64,000 nt of DNA. Source: a virus. Taxonomy: Duplodnaviria; Caudoviricetes. Of this stretch, positions 3,981 through 40,068 are shown one piece after another; position 1 is the first letter of the stretch, and each line of letters starts with the position of its first letter. The translations under genes were made by a program, and so were the position numbers. Location: the IMG/VR virus record IMGVR_UViG_3300023714_000001; one strand, written 5' to 3'. The notes under the pieces are model-generated. The model was given only the letters and a program-made list of their open reading frames with translations. It had not been told where the DNA came from and searched no databases.

Positions 3981-4019
3981 TAATAAAGACACCGAGCATA
4001 AAACTCGGTGTCTTTATTA
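3981..4019. terminator. Bidirectional intrinsic terminator between convergent ligase and rep genes
   Basis: TAATAAAGACACCGAG-CATAAAA-CTCGGTGTCTTTATTA, a 16-bp perfect inverted repeat. Confidence 0.85.
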
Positions 4020-5327
4020 TTTTAATCCGCCAGGTAAATCGCCATGCTTTTCCTGCCACTCTCTAAGAAAGTCATTATTTTCAGGTGTCTGTATTGTAGA
4101 ATCATCCACATGGTTGCGAATAGACTCTGATATTTTAAGCGGCTCAAAGATAAGGTCATAATTAGAAGCCGCATCTATAACGTCATCTCTGTATTGTGGG
4201 GCGCGAAGCACAATCCGGGTTGCCAGCGTTTTGAACGGCTCATCAGATAGATTGCTTTTAAGCATTGTTCTAAGGTATCCGCCCGAATTGATAGAATCTG
4301 GCGGGGTTCCTTTTTCTTGAAGTTTGCCTAAATTAATACAGGTCTCGAGAATGGCACGCCAGACTTTAGCCGGCTGTGACTGATACTTTGCTATTGATGT
4401 TTTACCAAACCCCAAGGACTCCATCTTCGAAGATAGGTAGTCCCAAGAAGGAACACCATATTCATCAAAAATAGCATAAACATGATGAGCTGGCAGCAAG
4501 GGCGTCGGCGCCGCATTTAATGCAACGACAAAGATGAATTCGGTAAGTCGCTGGCCGGGGACATTTGTTGTAATCTCATCTTCGTTCAAAATACGGAACT
4601 GAGATTTCGGCGAGGAGTTGATATCCTCAATAGCTTTTTGTATGACATTGCGCTTATAGTCATTAGGGCTGGCCAGCTTGAATTTTCCTGTCTTGGGATT
4701 AACAGGGGTAGGGACACGCAAACGAAGTTCTTTGTAAGATACCGTTATTCTGTATGGATACGGAGATTCGTTAATCTTTTCCTCCGCAACCCTTGCAGAG
4801 AGCCATTCATAAAATGGATAAGTGTAAGCACTGGAGCTTTGTTCATGGAATTCGTAATCCATTTGAAAAGCAGGGTTACACAACACATTCTCTATGTAAA
4901 AATCCTGATACTCTTTATTTATTGTAATGCGGACAAGTCCTTTGCTCTGATTTTGTTTAACCGAAGAAAGTATCCAGTACGTAGCTTTTTTAAACCCCTG
5001 ATTTCTTTCGGTGTTATGCTTGAAATGAACTGTAACATTGAGGGGGACTTTTGTCAGGTCGTCAAAGACCTTCTCGAAAGATTGGTAAAGAGAGTGCCAG
5101 CTTTTCACATTCTTGGCTACAGCCAGTTTGCGGAAATCTATATCAAAGGTGATGGGGACAGTTATATCTCCGCCATTTTCTACATAGTCTTGGATACCCT
5201 TACGAATAGCAACAATGAAGTCAGACTCATGTTTTGTTGTGGCGCGATTCGGGCTGCCTGCTGCAAGTTCTAGGCTAGAGAAAAGTGAAGTCTGCTCAAA
5301 ATGCTTTTCCAAAGATAACGCCTCCAA
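4017..5327 (-). CDS. Plasmid-type replication initiator (Rep_3 / RepB-like winged helix)
   Basis: S-YTYPFYEWL...ITVSYKELR...NDYKRNVIQKAIEDIN...EFIF matches the Rep_3 WH2 pattern. Adjacent to an iteron array and DnaA boxes. Confidence 0.8.
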   Translation of the reverse strand: MEALSLEKHFEQTSLFSSLELAAGSPNRATTKHESDFIVAIRKGIQDYVENGGDITVPITFDIDFRKLAVAKNVKSWHSLYQSFEKVFDDLTKVPLNVTVHFKHNTERNQGFKKATYWILSSVKQNQSKGLVRITINKEYQDFYIENVLCNPAFQMDYEFHEQSSSAYTYPFYEWLSARVAEEKINESPYPYRITVSYKELRLRVPTPVNPKTGKFKLASPNDYKRNVIQKAIEDINSSPKSQFRILNEDEITTNVPGQRLTEFIFVVALNAAPTPLLPAHHVYAIFDEYGVPSWDYLSSKMESLGFGKTSIAKYQSQPAKVWRAILETCINLGKLQEKGTPPDSINSGGYLRTMLKSNLSDEPFKTLATRIVLRAPQYRDDVIDAASNYDLIFEPLKISESIRNHVDDSTIQTPENNDFLREWQEKHGDLPGGLK

Positions 5328-35443: not shown

Positions 35444-35968
35444 ATGCTGGATTTAGAAATGACTGATAGCGGGGATCTTGCATGGTCTTCAGTATCGAGC
35501 CCTGGCGCCTTTCATTTGCGTTTTGCGTTAGCCGACTATAAAACCCAGCACATACATTTTTTGTGTAGGCCGACAAGCCGGCTGCAGAATAAACCTCGCA
35601 AAGGGCAACGTATTCGCTTTTGTTTTGTAGGGCCTGGGGAGGAGTTCAAAGTACAAACGGGGTTAGTACAAGATGAAAACGAAAGACTGCAGGCGCTATA
35701 TATTGCACTTCGCACGGAACTTGGCGACGTAAATGACGATACGGTGGGTTCTGACTTCTATAAAGAAGCTCACCATATCATAGCAGATGCTAATGATTTG
35801 TCGACTATCCGTGATAAGGCTGCAGAAGTGGTTGAACGCTTCTTTCCGGGCTCAGTCCTCGAAGCTGAATACTCAATATGTCCAGAGGCAAAAAACTTTA
35901 AGTACCAGTCAGTGAAGTTTACAATAAAAGATAAGGACAACGAGGTTATAGCCTCGTTTGTATTCTGA
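35444..35968 (+). CDS. gp25/gpW-like baseplate wedge protein
   Basis: MLDLEMTDSGDL ... QALYIALRTELGD...GSDFY pattern and position in the baseplate cluster. Confidence 0.5.
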   Translation: MLDLEMTDSGDLAWSSVSSPGAFHLRFALADYKTQHIHFLCRPTSRLQNKPRKGQRIRFCFVGPGEEFKVQTGLVQDENERLQALYIALRTELGDVNDDTVGSDFYKEAHHIIADANDLSTIRDKAAEVVERFFPGSVLEAEYSICPEAKNFKYQSVKFTIKDKDNEVIASFVF

Positions 35969-35993
35969 GAGAGCGAAAGCTCTCTATTTTTTT
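35968..35993 (+). terminator. Intrinsic terminator
   Basis: AGAGAGC-GAAA-GCTCTCT-ATTTTTTT (GNRA loop). Confidence 0.85.
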
Positions 35994-36023: not shown

Positions 36024-36052
36024 TTGACAAATGTGGTAATGTGTACTACGAT
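36024..36052 (+). promoter_or_regulatory. Sigma-A promoter of NAD salvage operon
   Basis: TTGACA (36024-36029), 17-nt spacer, TACGAT (36047-36052). Confidence 0.8.
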
Positions 36053-36074
36053 TAATGTAGTACAAGATACCACA
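36032..36074. promoter_or_regulatory. Tandem NrtR-type operators overlapping -10 and transcription start
   Basis: TGTGGT-AATGTGT-ACTACG (36032-36050) and TGTAGT-ACAAGAT-ACCACA (36056-36074). Both are GT-N7-AC quasi-palindromes and together form a 43-bp dyad. Confidence 0.75.
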
Positions 36075-36091
36075 AAAAAGAGGTTGATTAT

Positions 36092-36877
36092 ATGTCAGAT
36101 ACACAAGAAGAGAAGGAATTTCTCAAAAACTACGATGCGGCACAGTATGAAAGACCATCTGTAACAGCAGATGTTGTTATTTTTACTGTAGACAGAGATA
36201 ACGAATTAAGTATCCTGTTGATAAAGCGCGGAGGACATCCCTATAAGGACCATTGGGCTATCCCAGGCGGATTTCTTGAGGCTGGAAAAGAATCCATTGA
36301 TGAGGCTGCCGCCCGCGAGCTGTACGAGGAAACGGGAATAAAGGTTTCTGATGGCATCGAACTTAGGCAGCTTATCACGGTTGGTGAACCGGATCGCGAC
36401 CCGAGAACACATGTCGTGAGTGTAGTTTATACGGCATTGGTCCCAAAAGGACTTCTACGTATAAAGGCAGGGGATGATGCAAAAGAAGCGCAGCTTTTTA
36501 AAATTCGCAAGGGGTTCGACGAAGAAGGAAACCGCAGGCTGCGTCTTGTTGGTGATAAGATTTCACTTACCACGGATAACCTTGCATTCGATCATGCCCG
36601 CATTGTGAAAATTGCATTGGAAAGGCTCAAAGGACGGTTAGCATATACGGACGACGCCTTCGCAATGCTCAAGAATAAAAAATGTTTTAAGATTTACGAG
36701 CTCAAGAAAATTCACGAAACCATTTTACAAAAAGTAATCGACAGAGCGAATTTCCGTAAAATGTTTATTCGAAACTTTGTCGATACCGGCAAGGTTAGAG
36801 AATTAAAAAAAGATGAAGTTGAAGGCACCGTAAAAACAGCAATGTATATGTATGTTGGAGGGAACGAGCATGAGTAA
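36092..36877 (+). CDS. nrtR: NrtR-family Nudix/wHTH transcriptional regulator of NAD metabolism
   Basis: YERPSVTADVVIF, Nudix box PGGF...ESIDEAAARELYEETGI, RDPR, LAFDH, and C-terminal wHTH ELKKIHETIL...DRANFRK. Confidence 0.9.
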   Translation: MSDTQEEKEFLKNYDAAQYERPSVTADVVIFTVDRDNELSILLIKRGGHPYKDHWAIPGGFLEAGKESIDEAAARELYEETGIKVSDGIELRQLITVGEPDRDPRTHVVSVVYTALVPKGLLRIKAGDDAKEAQLFKIRKGFDEEGNRRLRLVGDKISLTTDNLAFDHARIVKIALERLKGRLAYTDDAFAMLKNKKCFKIYELKKIHETILQKVIDRANFRKMFIRNFVDTGKVRELKKDEVEGTVKTAMYMYVGGNEHE

Positions 36878-37421
36878 AAAAGTATTGATTGTTGTTGACA
36901 TGCAGAACGATTTTATCGATGGTGCGCTGGGTACTAAAGAGGCTCAGTCCATTGTTGATAACGTAGCCAAGAAGGTCGCGGAGGCAAAAAAGAATGGCGA
37001 TATCATTATCTTCACGCAGGATACACATACGGAAGATTACCTTAACACGCAAGAAGGTAAGAATCTGCCGGTGCCTCATTGCATTAAAGGAACAGATGGC
37101 TGGAAGATAACCAACAAGATTGACATTCCTGAAGGATGTCTGATGTACGAAAAAGGTTCCTTTGGCTCTGGTGAACTTGGCAAAGACCTTTCCAATAGTG
37201 AAGGGAAAATCAGTGCAATTGAATTCGTTGGGCTCTGCACAGATATCTGCGTACTGTCCAATGCGGTAATCGCAAAAGCGGCACTGCCGGAAGTTCCCAT
37301 CACAGTAGATGCTGCATGCTGCGCGGGCGTAACACCGAAGAGCCATGATGAAGCTCTTGGCGCATTGCAGATGATTCAGGTAAAAGTCGCAAACCAAGAG
37401 CAGGAACCCTGGAGGGCATAA
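36870..37421 (+). CDS. pncA: Nicotinamidase (isochorismatase family)
   Basis: VVDMQNDF, DTH, PHC, EK and GLCTDICV (catalytic Cys). GGAGGG SD before ATG 36870. Confidence 0.88.
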   Translation: MSKKVLIVVDMQNDFIDGALGTKEAQSIVDNVAKKVAEAKKNGDIIIFTQDTHTEDYLNTQEGKNLPVPHCIKGTDGWKITNKIDIPEGCLMYEKGSFGSGELGKDLSNSEGKISAIEFVGLCTDICVLSNAVIAKAALPEVPITVDAACCAGVTPKSHDEALGALQMIQVKVANQEQEPWRA

Positions 37422-37422
37422 A

Positions 37423-37959
37423 ATGCGCGTCGGAATTTACTTTGGTTGCTTTATCCCGCTGCATAAGGGACACGAAGCGATGATTAAAACTGCTTTGTCT
37501 GAAAACGACCATCTGATTCTGGGGATTTGCGGTTACGATAAAGATCGCGGGCGCGATTATATTCCATTTCGGCAACGCATCAATCTTATGTCGAAAATAT
37601 ATGGCCAGTGCGAGAACATAACTCTGGCGATTGTGGACGATAAGAAAATCGGCCTCAAGGGAACGTTTAGTTTAAACGCCTGGGAAATCTGGTGCAGCGA
37701 ATTATTTCAAAACTCTGGGTTTGACCCCGACGACAAGAAGAATCAATATGTCTGGTATTCTGGCGAAAAGGATTATCTGGAGAAGATACAGCAGTTATAT
37801 CCTAGCCACGAAATGCGGCACATTTCCAGAGGCTTAATTCCGATTTCGGGAACAGAAATCAGAGCCAATACCAGTCAATATATCATACATGTCAATCCGT
37901 TATTTGCTTTGTACTTAGCAGCACGGGGATTATTGGAGGATAATAAACATGAAATTTAA
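37423..37959 (+). CDS. NMN/NaMN adenylyltransferase-like (cytidylyltransferase HxGH superfamily; NadM/NadR-type)
   Basis: GCFIPLHKGH and ISGTEIR motifs, plus operon context. Confidence 0.78.
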   Translation: MRVGIYFGCFIPLHKGHEAMIKTALSENDHLILGICGYDKDRGRDYIPFRQRINLMSKIYGQCENITLAIVDDKKIGLKGTFSLNAWEIWCSELFQNSGFDPDDKKNQYVWYSGEKDYLEKIQQLYPSHEMRHISRGLIPISGTEIRANTSQYIIHVNPLFALYLAARGLLEDNKHEI

Positions 37960-39166
37960 TCAAATCATCAATTCTCTCTTGGAAACTGACCTTTACAAAT
38001 TTAGCATGGGGCAGGCAATTTTCCATCAGGCCAGCGAATATGAAACCACCTGGTCTTTTAAATGCCGCAATAAAGACGTATTCTTTACGCCGGAAATGGT
38101 TGAAGAAATCCGTGAGCAGATAAAAGCATTCTGTGGCCTGCGTTTTACGGAAGACGAGCTTCAGTATTTGGCCGGAATCAAATGGTTGAAGAAGTCTTAT
38201 ATCAACCATCTGCGTCTGTGGCGGCCTAACTTTGAGGATTTCGATATCAAGGCGGGCGGCGAAAAGGGCCTTATTCTTGAGGCCAAAGGTACACTTCTGG
38301 ATACGTCCATGTATGAAATTCCGACCCTGGCTATTATCAATGAAGTGTATTTCCGGTTCCGTGACGACTACGAAGTTCTGGTGGAGGACTCTAAGGCACG
38401 TACACAGGCAAAAGCAGAAAAGATTCAGATGGGCAAGTATTGGCTGCCGGTATTCTCCGAATTCGGTCTGCGCCGCCGCCTTTGCGCAGAAGCACAGGAA
38501 TATGCTGTAGAAACATTCTCTAAACTGGATTGTCATGATGTCCTGCGTTCCTATTTTGTCGGCACATCCAATGTTTATCTGGCCAAGAAATATGGCGTAA
38601 CACCGGTAGGTACGATGGCGCATGAATGGATTATGTGCATGGGTCAGGGCAATCACCTGTACAATCCTTCCTACTCCAACAAAGTAGCACTGGAAGCCTG
38701 GGTAAGAGAGTATGGTGTAGATAATGGTATTGCGCTTACCGATACGATTACGACGGACTGCTTCCTGCGTGATTTCAACAAAACACTGGCTACACTCTTC
38801 AGTGGTGTACGCCATGACTCTGGTGACCCGTTTGTATGGGGTGACAAGATGATTGACCATTATACCCGTCTGGGAATTGACCCCATGACCAAAACGTTGC
38901 TGTTCTCCGACAGCCTTAACTTCGAGAAGGCAGATAAAATTGCCCATTACTTCGAGGGCAAAGCCAAAGTAGCTTTCGGCATTGGTACTTATATTGCCAA
39001 CGATACCTATGCTGAACCGCTTAACATTGTCATGAAAGTGACGGAATGCAATGGCAGCCCGGTTGCAAAAATCTCCGATACTGCCGGCAAGGGAATGTGC
39101 AAGAGTCAGGAATATGTGGACTACTTGCAGAGAGCTATTGACTGGCGCTTGAAGAACAAAGACTGA
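37949..39166 (+). CDS. pncB: Nicotinate phosphoribosyltransferase
   Basis: LETDLYKFSM, EFGLRRR, GTSNV, GTMAHE, RHDSGDP, FSDSL, AFGIGT and KISD--GK. Confidence 0.93.
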   Translation: MKFNQIINSLLETDLYKFSMGQAIFHQASEYETTWSFKCRNKDVFFTPEMVEEIREQIKAFCGLRFTEDELQYLAGIKWLKKSYINHLRLWRPNFEDFDIKAGGEKGLILEAKGTLLDTSMYEIPTLAIINEVYFRFRDDYEVLVEDSKARTQAKAEKIQMGKYWLPVFSEFGLRRRLCAEAQEYAVETFSKLDCHDVLRSYFVGTSNVYLAKKYGVTPVGTMAHEWIMCMGQGNHLYNPSYSNKVALEAWVREYGVDNGIALTDTITTDCFLRDFNKTLATLFSGVRHDSGDPFVWGDKMIDHYTRLGIDPMTKTLLFSDSLNFEKADKIAHYFEGKAKVAFGIGTYIANDTYAEPLNIVMKVTECNGSPVAKISDTAGKGMCKSQEYVDYLQRAIDWRLKNKD

Positions 39167-39178
39167 GGGGTGTTTTGC

Positions 39179-39949
39179 TTGTATCCTGAATTTGATGCAA
39201 AAAAAGACAAGGAAAAGATTATAGGCTTTTTGAGAAACTGGTTTGCCGAAAACGGTACGCCGGAAACAAAAGCTGTAATAGGCATTTCCGGAGGCAAGGA
39301 TTCTTCTATTGCTGCAGCACTTTGCGTAGAAGCGCTGGGGGAAGATAATGTCATTGGAGTTCTCATGCCCAATGGCATTCAGCCAGACATTGATGATGCG
39401 CTTGAGGTGGTAAAACATCTTGGTATTAAATATCGCATTGTCAATATTGAATCGTCGTACAAAGCTATGCTTAAAGCGCTGCAGTATACCGAGGCCAAAG
39501 TTGACAACAACTTCCATTTTTCAGTTACAGACCAGCTTCTTCAGAATCTTGCGCCAAGGTTGCGGATGGCAACGTTATATGCTATAGCACAGGGGGTAGA
39601 AGGTGGTGGCCGCGTTATCAATACCTGTAACCATTCCGAAGACTATGTAGGCTATTCGACAAAATTCGGTGATAGCGCCGGCGACGTTTCCCCGCTTGGC
39701 GCTTATACCGTAGATGAAGTTCTGGCCATCGGAGCGCTTTTGGACATTCCGGAAAGGCTGGTACACAAAACTCCTTCCGACGGTCTCTGTGGCAAAACCG
39801 ATGAAGACAACCTGGGCTTTACTTATGCTGCTTTGGACAAGTATATAAAAACCGGCGAATGTGAGGATGAGCTGGTGCAGAAACGAATTGATGAGCTGCA
39901 TTATATCAATCTTCACAAACTCAAGCCAATGCCAATGGTTGAGCGGTAA
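39179..39949 (+). CDS. nadE: NH3-dependent NAD+ synthetase
   Basis: GISGGKDSS, NLAPRLRMATLY, GYSTKFGD and PSDGL. No glutaminase domain. TTG 39179 preferred over GTG 39170 because of SD spacing. Confidence 0.93.
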   Translation: MYPEFDAKKDKEKIIGFLRNWFAENGTPETKAVIGISGGKDSSIAAALCVEALGEDNVIGVLMPNGIQPDIDDALEVVKHLGIKYRIVNIESSYKAMLKALQYTEAKVDNNFHFSVTDQLLQNLAPRLRMATLYAIAQGVEGGGRVINTCNHSEDYVGYSTKFGDSAGDVSPLGAYTVDEVLAIGALLDIPERLVHKTPSDGLCGKTDEDNLGFTYAALDKYIKTGECEDELVQKRIDELHYINLHKLKPMPMVER

Positions 39950-39954
39950 TCAGC

Positions 39955-39990
39955 AAAAAGCTTCTATCGAATGATAGAGGCTTTTTATTT
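39955..39990 (+). terminator. Intrinsic terminator closing the NAD operon
   Basis: AAAAAGCTTCTATC-GAAT-GATAGAGGCTTTTT-ATTT. Confidence 0.85.
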
Positions 39991-40068
39991 ATGCGTGGAC
40001 TAAAGCATTCCAGATGGTAATGTCTGGACTAGATAAAATTCGGAAAACACCAGATAGGAAGGAAAACA

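Follow-up and report, generated by a model that had tools for sequence, protein, structure and literature searches.

Why would a phage carry a complete set of genes for rebuilding nicotinamide adenine dinucleotide (NAD+) from nicotinamide, together with the regulator of a bacterial salvage pathway? The question is raised by IMG/VR virus record IMGVR_UViG_3300023714_000001 (Duplodnaviria; Caudoviricetes), of which a stretch of 64,000 nucleotides, bases 99911–163910 of the 211,158-bp record, was analysed and is referred to as the window. The record has a CheckV completeness of 90% and contains a terminase match. Five adjacent genes in the window encode predicted NrtR, PncA, a NadR-like adenylyltransferase, PncB and NadE proteins, and we consider it probable that they constitute an ADP-ribose-regulated, self-contained nicotinamide-to-NAD+ cassette, carried as a moron in a Selenomonas-type rumen jumbo phage.

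Gene content and control of the cassette

The elements of the cassette, in window positions, are as follows.

35967–35992, plus strand: terminator of the preceding gene (35444–35968), a hairpin with T-run that insulates the 5' side of the cassette
36024–36052, plus strand: sigma-70-type promoter, TTGACA-17-TACGAT, with 10 of 12 consensus matches, the best plus-strand match of the region
36034–36048, plus strand: NrtR box 1, TGGTA-N5-TACTA, with GT-N7-AC core, between -35 and -10
36058–36072, plus strand: NrtR box 2, TAGTA-N5-TACCA, just 3' of -10 and 24 bp from box 1
36092–36877, plus strand: nrtR, predicted Nudix-related ADP-ribose-responsive repressor (Nudix plus winged helix)
36870–37421 (upstream ATG at 36852), plus strand: pncA, nicotinamidase (Isochorismatase, 6e-26)
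37423–37959, plus strand: stand-alone NadR-like pyridine-mononucleotide adenylyltransferase of 178 aa (CTP_transf_like; HKGH, ISGTEIR)
37949–39166, plus strand: pncB, nicotinate phosphoribosyltransferase (NAPRTase, 1e-67)
39170–39949, plus strand: nadE, single-domain NH3-dependent NAD synthetase family (NAD_synthase, 1e-51)
39958–39990, plus strand: intrinsic operon terminator (-17.6 kcal/mol, z -4.9; none of 200 shuffled sequences folds as stably)

The five co-directional open reading frames (ORFs; 36092–39949) are joined, in order, by an 8-nt overlap (26 nt if the upstream pncA ATG is used), a 1-nt gap, an 11-nt overlap and a 3-nt gap. GGAGG-type ribosome-binding sites lie 5' of pncA, the adenylyltransferase gene and pncB, and the likely start of pncA is the ATG at 36870, behind GGAGGG. 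For nadE the start is GTG 39170 or TTG 39179, the GAGGGG before it being better spaced for the latter. The terminal hairpin is followed by a U-run, UUUUUAUUU, and is not in the list of a consensus terminator scanner. The preliminary description of this DNA had placed nrtR, pncA, an HxGH adenylyltransferase, pncB and nadE at 36024–39990, tightly coupled between their own promoter and terminator, and had read them as a nicotinamide-to-NAD+ route. Profiles and motifs confirm the coordinates and the gene list, the overlaps, short gaps, promoter and hairpin bear out the coupling, and the predicted chemistry holds as far as family matches and catalytic motifs can tell. We regard the predicted biochemical function of the cassette as very likely.

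In PncA the catalytic residues D16, K101 and C133 and the metal ligands D57, H59 and H76 align with those of P. horikoshii PncA (1IM5), giving the Asp-Lys-Cys triad and metal site that mark a nicotinamidase. PncB scores above the curated cut-offs of NF003704 (475 bits; cut-off 379) and TIGR01514 (415 bits; cut-off 270), and NadE reaches 168 bits with TIGR00552 (cut-off 64) and has an intact SGGKDS P-loop. Judged from sequence, PncA would convert nicotinamide to nicotinate and PncB would form nicotinate mononucleotide (NaMN) from nicotinate, phosphoribosyl pyrophosphate (PRPP) and ATP, after which the adenylyltransferase and NadE would finish NAD+.

The regulator matches the NUDIX profile at 2.7e-20, NrtR_WHD at 26.6 bits, just below the 27-bit cut-off, and the NCBIfam NtrR model at 4e-39, under the cut-off of that model. 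Its best match in the PDB is 2FML (EF2700; E 1e-32, residues 14–234), an NrtR structure used in PMC2330246, and it is the NUDIX domain together with this match over both domains that places the protein in the NrtR family. The Nudix box, GX6EX7REUXEEXGU, is one residue longer than the canonical form, with the REx2EE core intact.

The promoter region carries a long imperfect palindrome around -10, made up of two 15-bp boxes that each have the GT-N7-AC core shared by NrtR operators (Rodionov et al. 2008, PMC2330246). These palindromic boxes overlap the promoter of the NAD genes, as sought in NrtR operators, and with box 1 between -35 and -10 and box 2 over the expected transcription start, their placement is typical of sites for a repressor. 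Two matches to the pattern TRGTA-N5-TACYA are present in the window against 0.12 expected, a count that is circular by itself since the pattern was derived from these very boxes, and the rest of the 211-kb genome has none. Independent support comes from 12 other loci where the same pair of boxes, at the same 24-bp spacing, lies just 5' of nrtR: four are phage loci (L003, L004, L046 and L050) and eight are bacterial, from Selenomonas ruminantium S137 and from Lachnospiraceae, Eubacterium and other Clostridia metagenome-assembled genomes. Phage relatives and bacterial nrtR operons also share the -35 box and the promoter spacing.

Bound to the two boxes flanking the -10 of this promoter for host RNA polymerase, NrtR would repress its own operon. 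Cleavage of NAD+ would let ADP-ribose build up, NrtR would come off the DNA and the operon would be transcribed. In vitro, NrtR is released from DNA most effectively by ADP-ribose, a relief demonstrated for the Synechocystis and Shewanella regulators only (PMC2330246), and we lean towards the view that such derepression operates in the phage setting as well.

Box 1 (GGTAATGTGTA, 36035–36045) is also one mismatch away from RGTAATRTNYG, a candidate phage promoter motif, a perfect copy of which is found at 40016, just past the operon terminator. The resemblance may be a coincidence, or the two signals may be related.

A Selenomonas-type operon as an insertion

Protein-guided scanning of one genome per species placed the closest PncB sequences in four Selenomonas genomes (83–87% identity), followed at about 70% by genomes that are mostly Lachnospiraceae. 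The Selenomonas loci hold a contiguous nrtR-pncA-pncB-nadE with 67–69, 59–63, 83–87 and 67–76% identity to the respective phage proteins, and in the loci examined no adenylyltransferase gene separates pncA from pncB. A PncB tree built from 161 sequences groups the window with three close phage relatives (support 95) and places this group inside a Selenomonas clade (support 100), where strain S137 is its sister (support 83); the tree requires at least eight switches between viral and bacterial labels. The 50-bp promoter-operator is identical to that of S. ruminantium S137 at 42 of 50 positions, and the other three Selenomonas genomes have an NrtR box sequence different from the S137/phage type.

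The cassette lies in the structural-gene block of the phage with terminators at both ends. In a distant relative (L189) the two flanking genes are adjacent and the cassette is absent from the same intergenic site, and this empty site and the bounding terminators make it a moron-like insertion. The G+C content at third codon positions (GC3) is 40–52% in the cassette, about 43% in the rest of the phage and 61–84% in Selenomonas; since it matches the phage and not Selenomonas, the cassette is taken to be long resident in the phage. With proteins closest to Selenomonas chromosomal genes, the cassette might be suspected of being bacterial and of having entered a phage contig through misassembly or contamination. 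This explanation is rejected, and we give it practically no credence, on account of the phage-like GC3 and of two independent metagenomes (L003 and L004) that hold the same cassette between the same flanking genes. Nor does it agree with an adenylyltransferase that is not Selenomonas-like, or with a megablast of the operon against phage and plasmid collections that gave no match. All relatives of the cassette were found through protein-guided searches.

That the cassette may have been captured from bacteria had been put forward in the preliminary description as an alternative explanation. Such a capture is now strongly supported by the identity to the Selenomonas operon, the PncB tree, the promoter-operator and L189, and it does not exclude a use in counter-defence. 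A Selenomonas-like chromosomal operon would be the source of nrtR, pncA, pncB and nadE and of the promoter with both NrtR operators. In S137 the flanks of the operon are ordinary chromosomal genes (ROK, PHP, MFS, GH1, HAD), and GC3 is lower than in the other three Selenomonas genomes. A tyrosine recombinase (integrase) gene lies directly 3' of nadE in this strain (L082:8194–9234, minus strand). There are hints here that the S137 operon may itself be mobile or phage-derived; whichever way the transfer went, the cassette is, by these comparisons, part of the Selenomonas gene pool.

Two variants were seen among the close phage relatives. In L003 (3604–4872) and L004 a gene for a 422-aa RRXRR plus HNH endonuclease, for which the window has no counterpart, stands between nrtR and pncA and looks like a free-standing homing endonuclease that invaded the cassette. 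A further contig (L002:1–3297) begins to match L003, at 99.5%, exactly at the 3' end of nrtR and is unrelated upstream, so that nrtR and the operators are missing; a natural recombinant without the regulator and an artefact of assembly are both conceivable.

The adenylyltransferase and the last steps to NAD+

The adenylyltransferase has the HxGH and ISxTxxR motifs and falls in a NadR-like, not a NadD, family. Its best model is the NadR NMNAT domain TIGR01526 (1e-22), matched over the adenylyltransferase half only, and its best PDB match, 6GYE (6e-20), is likewise a NadR NMNAT domain. Of the NadD models, TIGR00482 was not among the listed matches and NF005519 was marginal (E 9e-4).

Among 1.84 billion representative proteins, searched exhaustively, there were only 229 relatives of this enzyme, 14 of them at E <= 1e-30. 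The nearest (40–93% identity) are located on phage-like contigs beside nrtR, pncA, pncB or nadE, and the contigs that were read carry many small unannotated ORFs on one strand; matches below about 35% identity are full-length NadR proteins. One such locus (L176:3513–11281) has the order AAA_28, nrtR, pncA, adenylyltransferase, pncB, radical SAM, nadE, with small unannotated ORFs in between, AAA_28 being presumably the family of the NadR riboside-kinase domain. A second arrangement is adenylyltransferase, pncB, nadE, nadE. Three Selenomonas genomes queried with the phage enzyme gave no homologue, and each holds a canonical NadD elsewhere. The best match among 401 sampled genomes of the host phylum reached 30% identity, and two Butyrivibrio genomes (L129 and L134) share the five-gene order, with an enzyme of 31% identity, and have NadD in addition. 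Identity to the bacterial enzymes found is just 25–31%. The phage gene pool would be the source of this NadR-like enzyme, which would then have been slotted between pncA and pncB of the captured operon; with it the cassette would be independent of the unlinked NadD of the host.

A 328-aa relative (48% identity) on another phage-like contig (L177:6001–8180) lies directly upstream of an AcrVA2-like gene, with no pncB or nadE nearby. This locus may be an anti-defence island.

A comparison of phages with chromosomes, suggested in the preliminary description as a check for enrichment, covered the 80 best pncB loci on either side. All four enzymes lie within about 13 kb in at least 53 of the viral (IMG/VR) loci and in 2 of the bacterial ones; a tendency is apparent but no rate, since the samples consist of best hits and include many phage contigs that are near-duplicates. 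In the largest IMG/VR group the cluster consists of pncA, DUF5662, pncB, a NadD-like enzyme and nadE. The DUF5662 protein (188 aa) is encoded between pncA and pncB in L038 (5427–5993) and in about 40 related IMG/VR loci, the commonest phage version of the NAD cluster. At least two unrelated adenylyltransferases, NadR-like and NadD-like, have been recruited in phage clusters. In the bacterial loci sampled an adenylyltransferase is seldom linked to pncB, and in the genomes checked NadD lies elsewhere. In our reading, phages repeatedly capture pncA/pncB/nadE operons from their hosts and appear to add an adenylyltransferase to them, and viral contigs from gut and rumen commonly carry the cassette.

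The most likely order of the last steps would be NaMN to nicotinate adenine dinucleotide (NaAD) to NAD+, an order that we favour with some reservation. Characterised NadR-family members prefer nicotinamide mononucleotide (NMN), and no reliable sequence rule is known for the preference between NaMN and NMN in this family. The substrate of NadE would be NaAD, or possibly NaMN. In the second case NadE would be an NMN synthetase that converts NaMN to NMN, which the NadR-like enzyme would turn into NAD+, with NaAD never formed. Both the NadR NMNAT domains that best match the adenylyltransferase and the best solved relative of NadE agree with this order; the latter is chain 3FIU (E 3e-33), labelled 'NH(3)-dependent NAD(+) synthetase', which we take to be Francisella tularensis NadE. 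According to PMC3376133, which cites Sorci et al. 2009, the Francisella NadE homologue is an NMN synthetase that is paired with an NMN-preferring NadM. However, 3FIU is barely ahead of P. horikoshii NadE (1e-31), and the match may reflect the short-NadE subfamily only. The phage NadE is 67–76% identical to the NadE of the Selenomonas operon, and Selenomonas has NadD and no NMNAT that could be found with the phage query, which favours NaAD as the substrate; other phage clusters pair NadE with a NadD-like enzyme. We consider the order through NMN unlikely and retain the one through NaAD.

Proposed benefit to the phage and relation to known systems

Elsewhere in the window lie genes for an RNA ligase and for collagen-like tail-fibre proteins, as well as several giant ORFs; almost all of these are on the plus strand. 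Three further genes of the record bear on the use of NAD+ and on the lifestyle of the phage.

Window 4017–5327, minus strand: Rep3_N-type initiator (25.1 bits against a 22.4-bit cut-off, a weak match)
G000:C1:79377–81357, minus strand: ParA-type ATPase (AAA_31, 4e-36; profile match)
G000:C1:23831–25804, minus strand, outside the window: NAD+-dependent DNA ligase, an ORF of 657–664 aa (adenylation domain 1e-28)

The initiator and the ParA-type ATPase stand on the minus strand within an otherwise plus-strand late region and are consistent with a phage-plasmid lifestyle. Because it encodes an NAD+-dependent DNA ligase, the phage is expected to consume NAD+ for replication. Ligases of this LigA type release NMN, and the adenylyltransferase, being of a NadR-type family, might stand outside the Preiss-Handler line altogether: it would re-adenylylate NMN from the ligase or other sources and leave NaMN to the NadD of the host. 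Bacteria with NadD do keep a NadR-like gene in the same operon. Yet the near relatives of the enzyme almost always adjoin pncB and nadE, and in other phages a NadD-like enzyme fills the same slot, so that the slot appears to be that of the adenylyltransferase step of the pathway. We judge such recycling of NMN to be quite unlikely.

The benefit of the cassette would be that NAD+ is kept available in the infected or phage-carrying cell, where it would serve the ligase and could offset NAD+-depleting SIR2 and TIR defences. Counter-defence is plausible in that the predicted substrates are the products of NADase effectors and the predicted switch answers one of these products, and 5 of 24 Selenomonas genomes encode SIR2_2 proteins of the defence type. 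As the main selected role it is a serious possibility that we would still not call probable. The same chemistry might give general metabolic support instead, or lysogenic conversion by a plasmid-prophage under normal NrtR homeostasis. The promoter and operators are of host type, and genes that a resident element expresses typically have insulation of this moron-like kind; the ParA-type ATPase and the Rep3_N initiator fit a phage-plasmid, and the ligase of the phage needs NAD+. Bacteria use the same regulated operon for ordinary homeostasis (PMC2330246), and NARP2, a known phage NAD+ reconstitution pathway (NARP), makes NAD+ with or without a defence system (bioRxiv 10.1101/2024.02.11.579819). 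Set against this, the host already owns the operon and a duplicate would add little at steady state, the Rep3_N match is weak and plasmid maintenance only putative, and the repeated addition of an adenylyltransferase in phages suggests a pressure for host-independent, high-flux synthesis, as under acute loss of NAD+. Metabolic support as the role has an appreciable chance that nevertheless stays on the improbable side; were it correct, this would be one more ordinary auxiliary metabolic cassette, of a sort that has been catalogued before. A stronger version of the counter-defence proposal, in which NrtR is a sensor of immune damage, ADP-ribose from SIR2/TIR cleavage induces the operon and the cassette is a fourth reconstitution pathway repeatedly assembled in gut and rumen phages, is doubtful. 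That the deamidated intermediates escape NADases is speculation, and the route in any case ends in NAD+.

Several points count against our view of a regulated, self-contained route through NaAD that came from a bacterium. That an enzyme of an NMN-type family accepts NaMN is an assumption, and NaAD is not assured as an intermediate because the adenylyltransferase is NadR-like and the best solved relative of NadE is Francisella-type. Genome context does not fix the substrates, since Selenomonas also has a second, long NadE and Butyrivibrio combines NadD with the NadR-like enzyme of its operon. The NrtR of the host could bind the phage operators too. Because S137 has the phage-type operator, the lower GC3 and an integrase gene by nadE, transfer may have run in either direction, including back from phage to S137. 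The excess of complete clusters among viral loci is, as said, a tendency drawn from partly redundant samples.

Should the cassette rescue phages, a four-enzyme deamidating route would stand beside three experimentally proven NAD+ reconstitution pathways. It would be the first of them with a metabolite-sensing switch, operated by ADP-ribose through NrtR, and it may influence which gut and rumen phages succeed against SIR2, TIR and DSR defences. The preliminary description had proposed the operon as a candidate NARP, distinct from NARP1 and NARP2. The distinction stands on gene content; the idea itself is not new (PMC11662467), and the name NARP3 has been given to another pathway (PMC13464706). 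Our search of the 211-kb genome for PRPP synthetase, NAMPT/Namat, PnuC, a second Nudix protein and a second adenylyltransferase found none of these. For NARP1, there is no Pribosyltran_N match in the genome, in which pncB is the sole NAPRTase-family match; for NARP2, the genome has no NAMPT and an NMNAT-like enzyme only; for NARP3, it has no NMN_transporter (PnuC) match. The cassette is thus none of the three, because Adps/PRPS-like, Namat/NAMPT and PnuC genes were not found. NARP2 of Vibrio phage KVP40 consists of NAMPT and NMNAT and was shown experimentally to defeat NAD+-depleting defences (bioRxiv 10.1101/2024.02.11.579819). Like the phage cassette it starts from nicotinamide and PRPP, and the adenylyltransferase step comes last in it, but it needs two enzymes and no deamidation or re-amidation where the cassette has four enzymes. 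NARP3 of phage Bas30, PnuC plus a bifunctional NadR (PMC13464706), shares with the cassette a NadR-family adenylyltransferase; it depends, however, on imported nicotinamide riboside, PnuC and a kinase domain, whereas the enzyme of the window is a 178-aa adenylyltransferase domain alone. The paper on NARP1 and NARP2 is silent on a deamidating route (bioRxiv 10.1101/2024.02.11.579819), and our literature search found no 'NARP4' and no experimental study of a phage nicotinamidase (PncA/PncB/NadE) route.

The Francisella tularensis route likewise combines PncB, a short NadE and an NMN-type adenylyltransferase. Its order is forced, Francisella being without NadD (PMC3376133), whereas that of the phage cassette is not. 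Closer in setting are the 174 'NAD-jumbo phages' of Li et al. 2024 (Microbiome, PMC11662467), which have complete salvage or Preiss-Handler pathways, exemplified by the pncB-nadD-nadE cluster of Kuafu_71; the authors, working by bioinformatics only, suggest that the pathways support the use of NAD+ by the phages and possibly counter-defence. At 211,158 bp and with four enzyme families, the present phage has both the size (>200 kb) and every enzyme of one NAD+ pathway that define this group, provided that the substrates of the adenylyltransferase and NadE match each other. It too is a jumbo phage in which a complete deamidating route is clustered and known from genes alone. It differs in also having pncA, in NrtR with its operators, in a NadR-type instead of a NadD-type enzyme, and in a Selenomonas (Negativicutes) host as against Bacteroidota; NrtR goes unmentioned by Li et al. 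Among cultured phages, Xanthomonas phage X1 has pncB, nadM, nadD, nadE and NAMPT (PMC13384950).

The closest likeness is to the bacterial NrtR-regulated operons of salvage pathway I, of which nrtR-pncA-pncB-nadD-nadE was described in 2008 (Rodionov et al., PMC2330246). Regulator family, GT-N7-AC operators over the promoter and enzymes are the same; the gene order is that of the Selenomonas operon, and the exact five-gene order with a NadR-like enzyme is found in Butyrivibrio. The phage cassette departs from these operons in its place within a block of phage structural genes, in its phage-shifted codon usage and in a NadR-like domain from the phage pool in place of NadD. It exemplifies how a host operon may become a host-independent module, with the regulator captured too, the codon usage shifted and the missing enzyme inserted. 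With phage Preiss-Handler clusters and bacterial nrtR operons both already published, the concept is not new; what appears to be undescribed is a phage-borne NrtR with conserved tandem operators, together with a NadR-like adenylyltransferase seemingly recruited from the phage gene pool.

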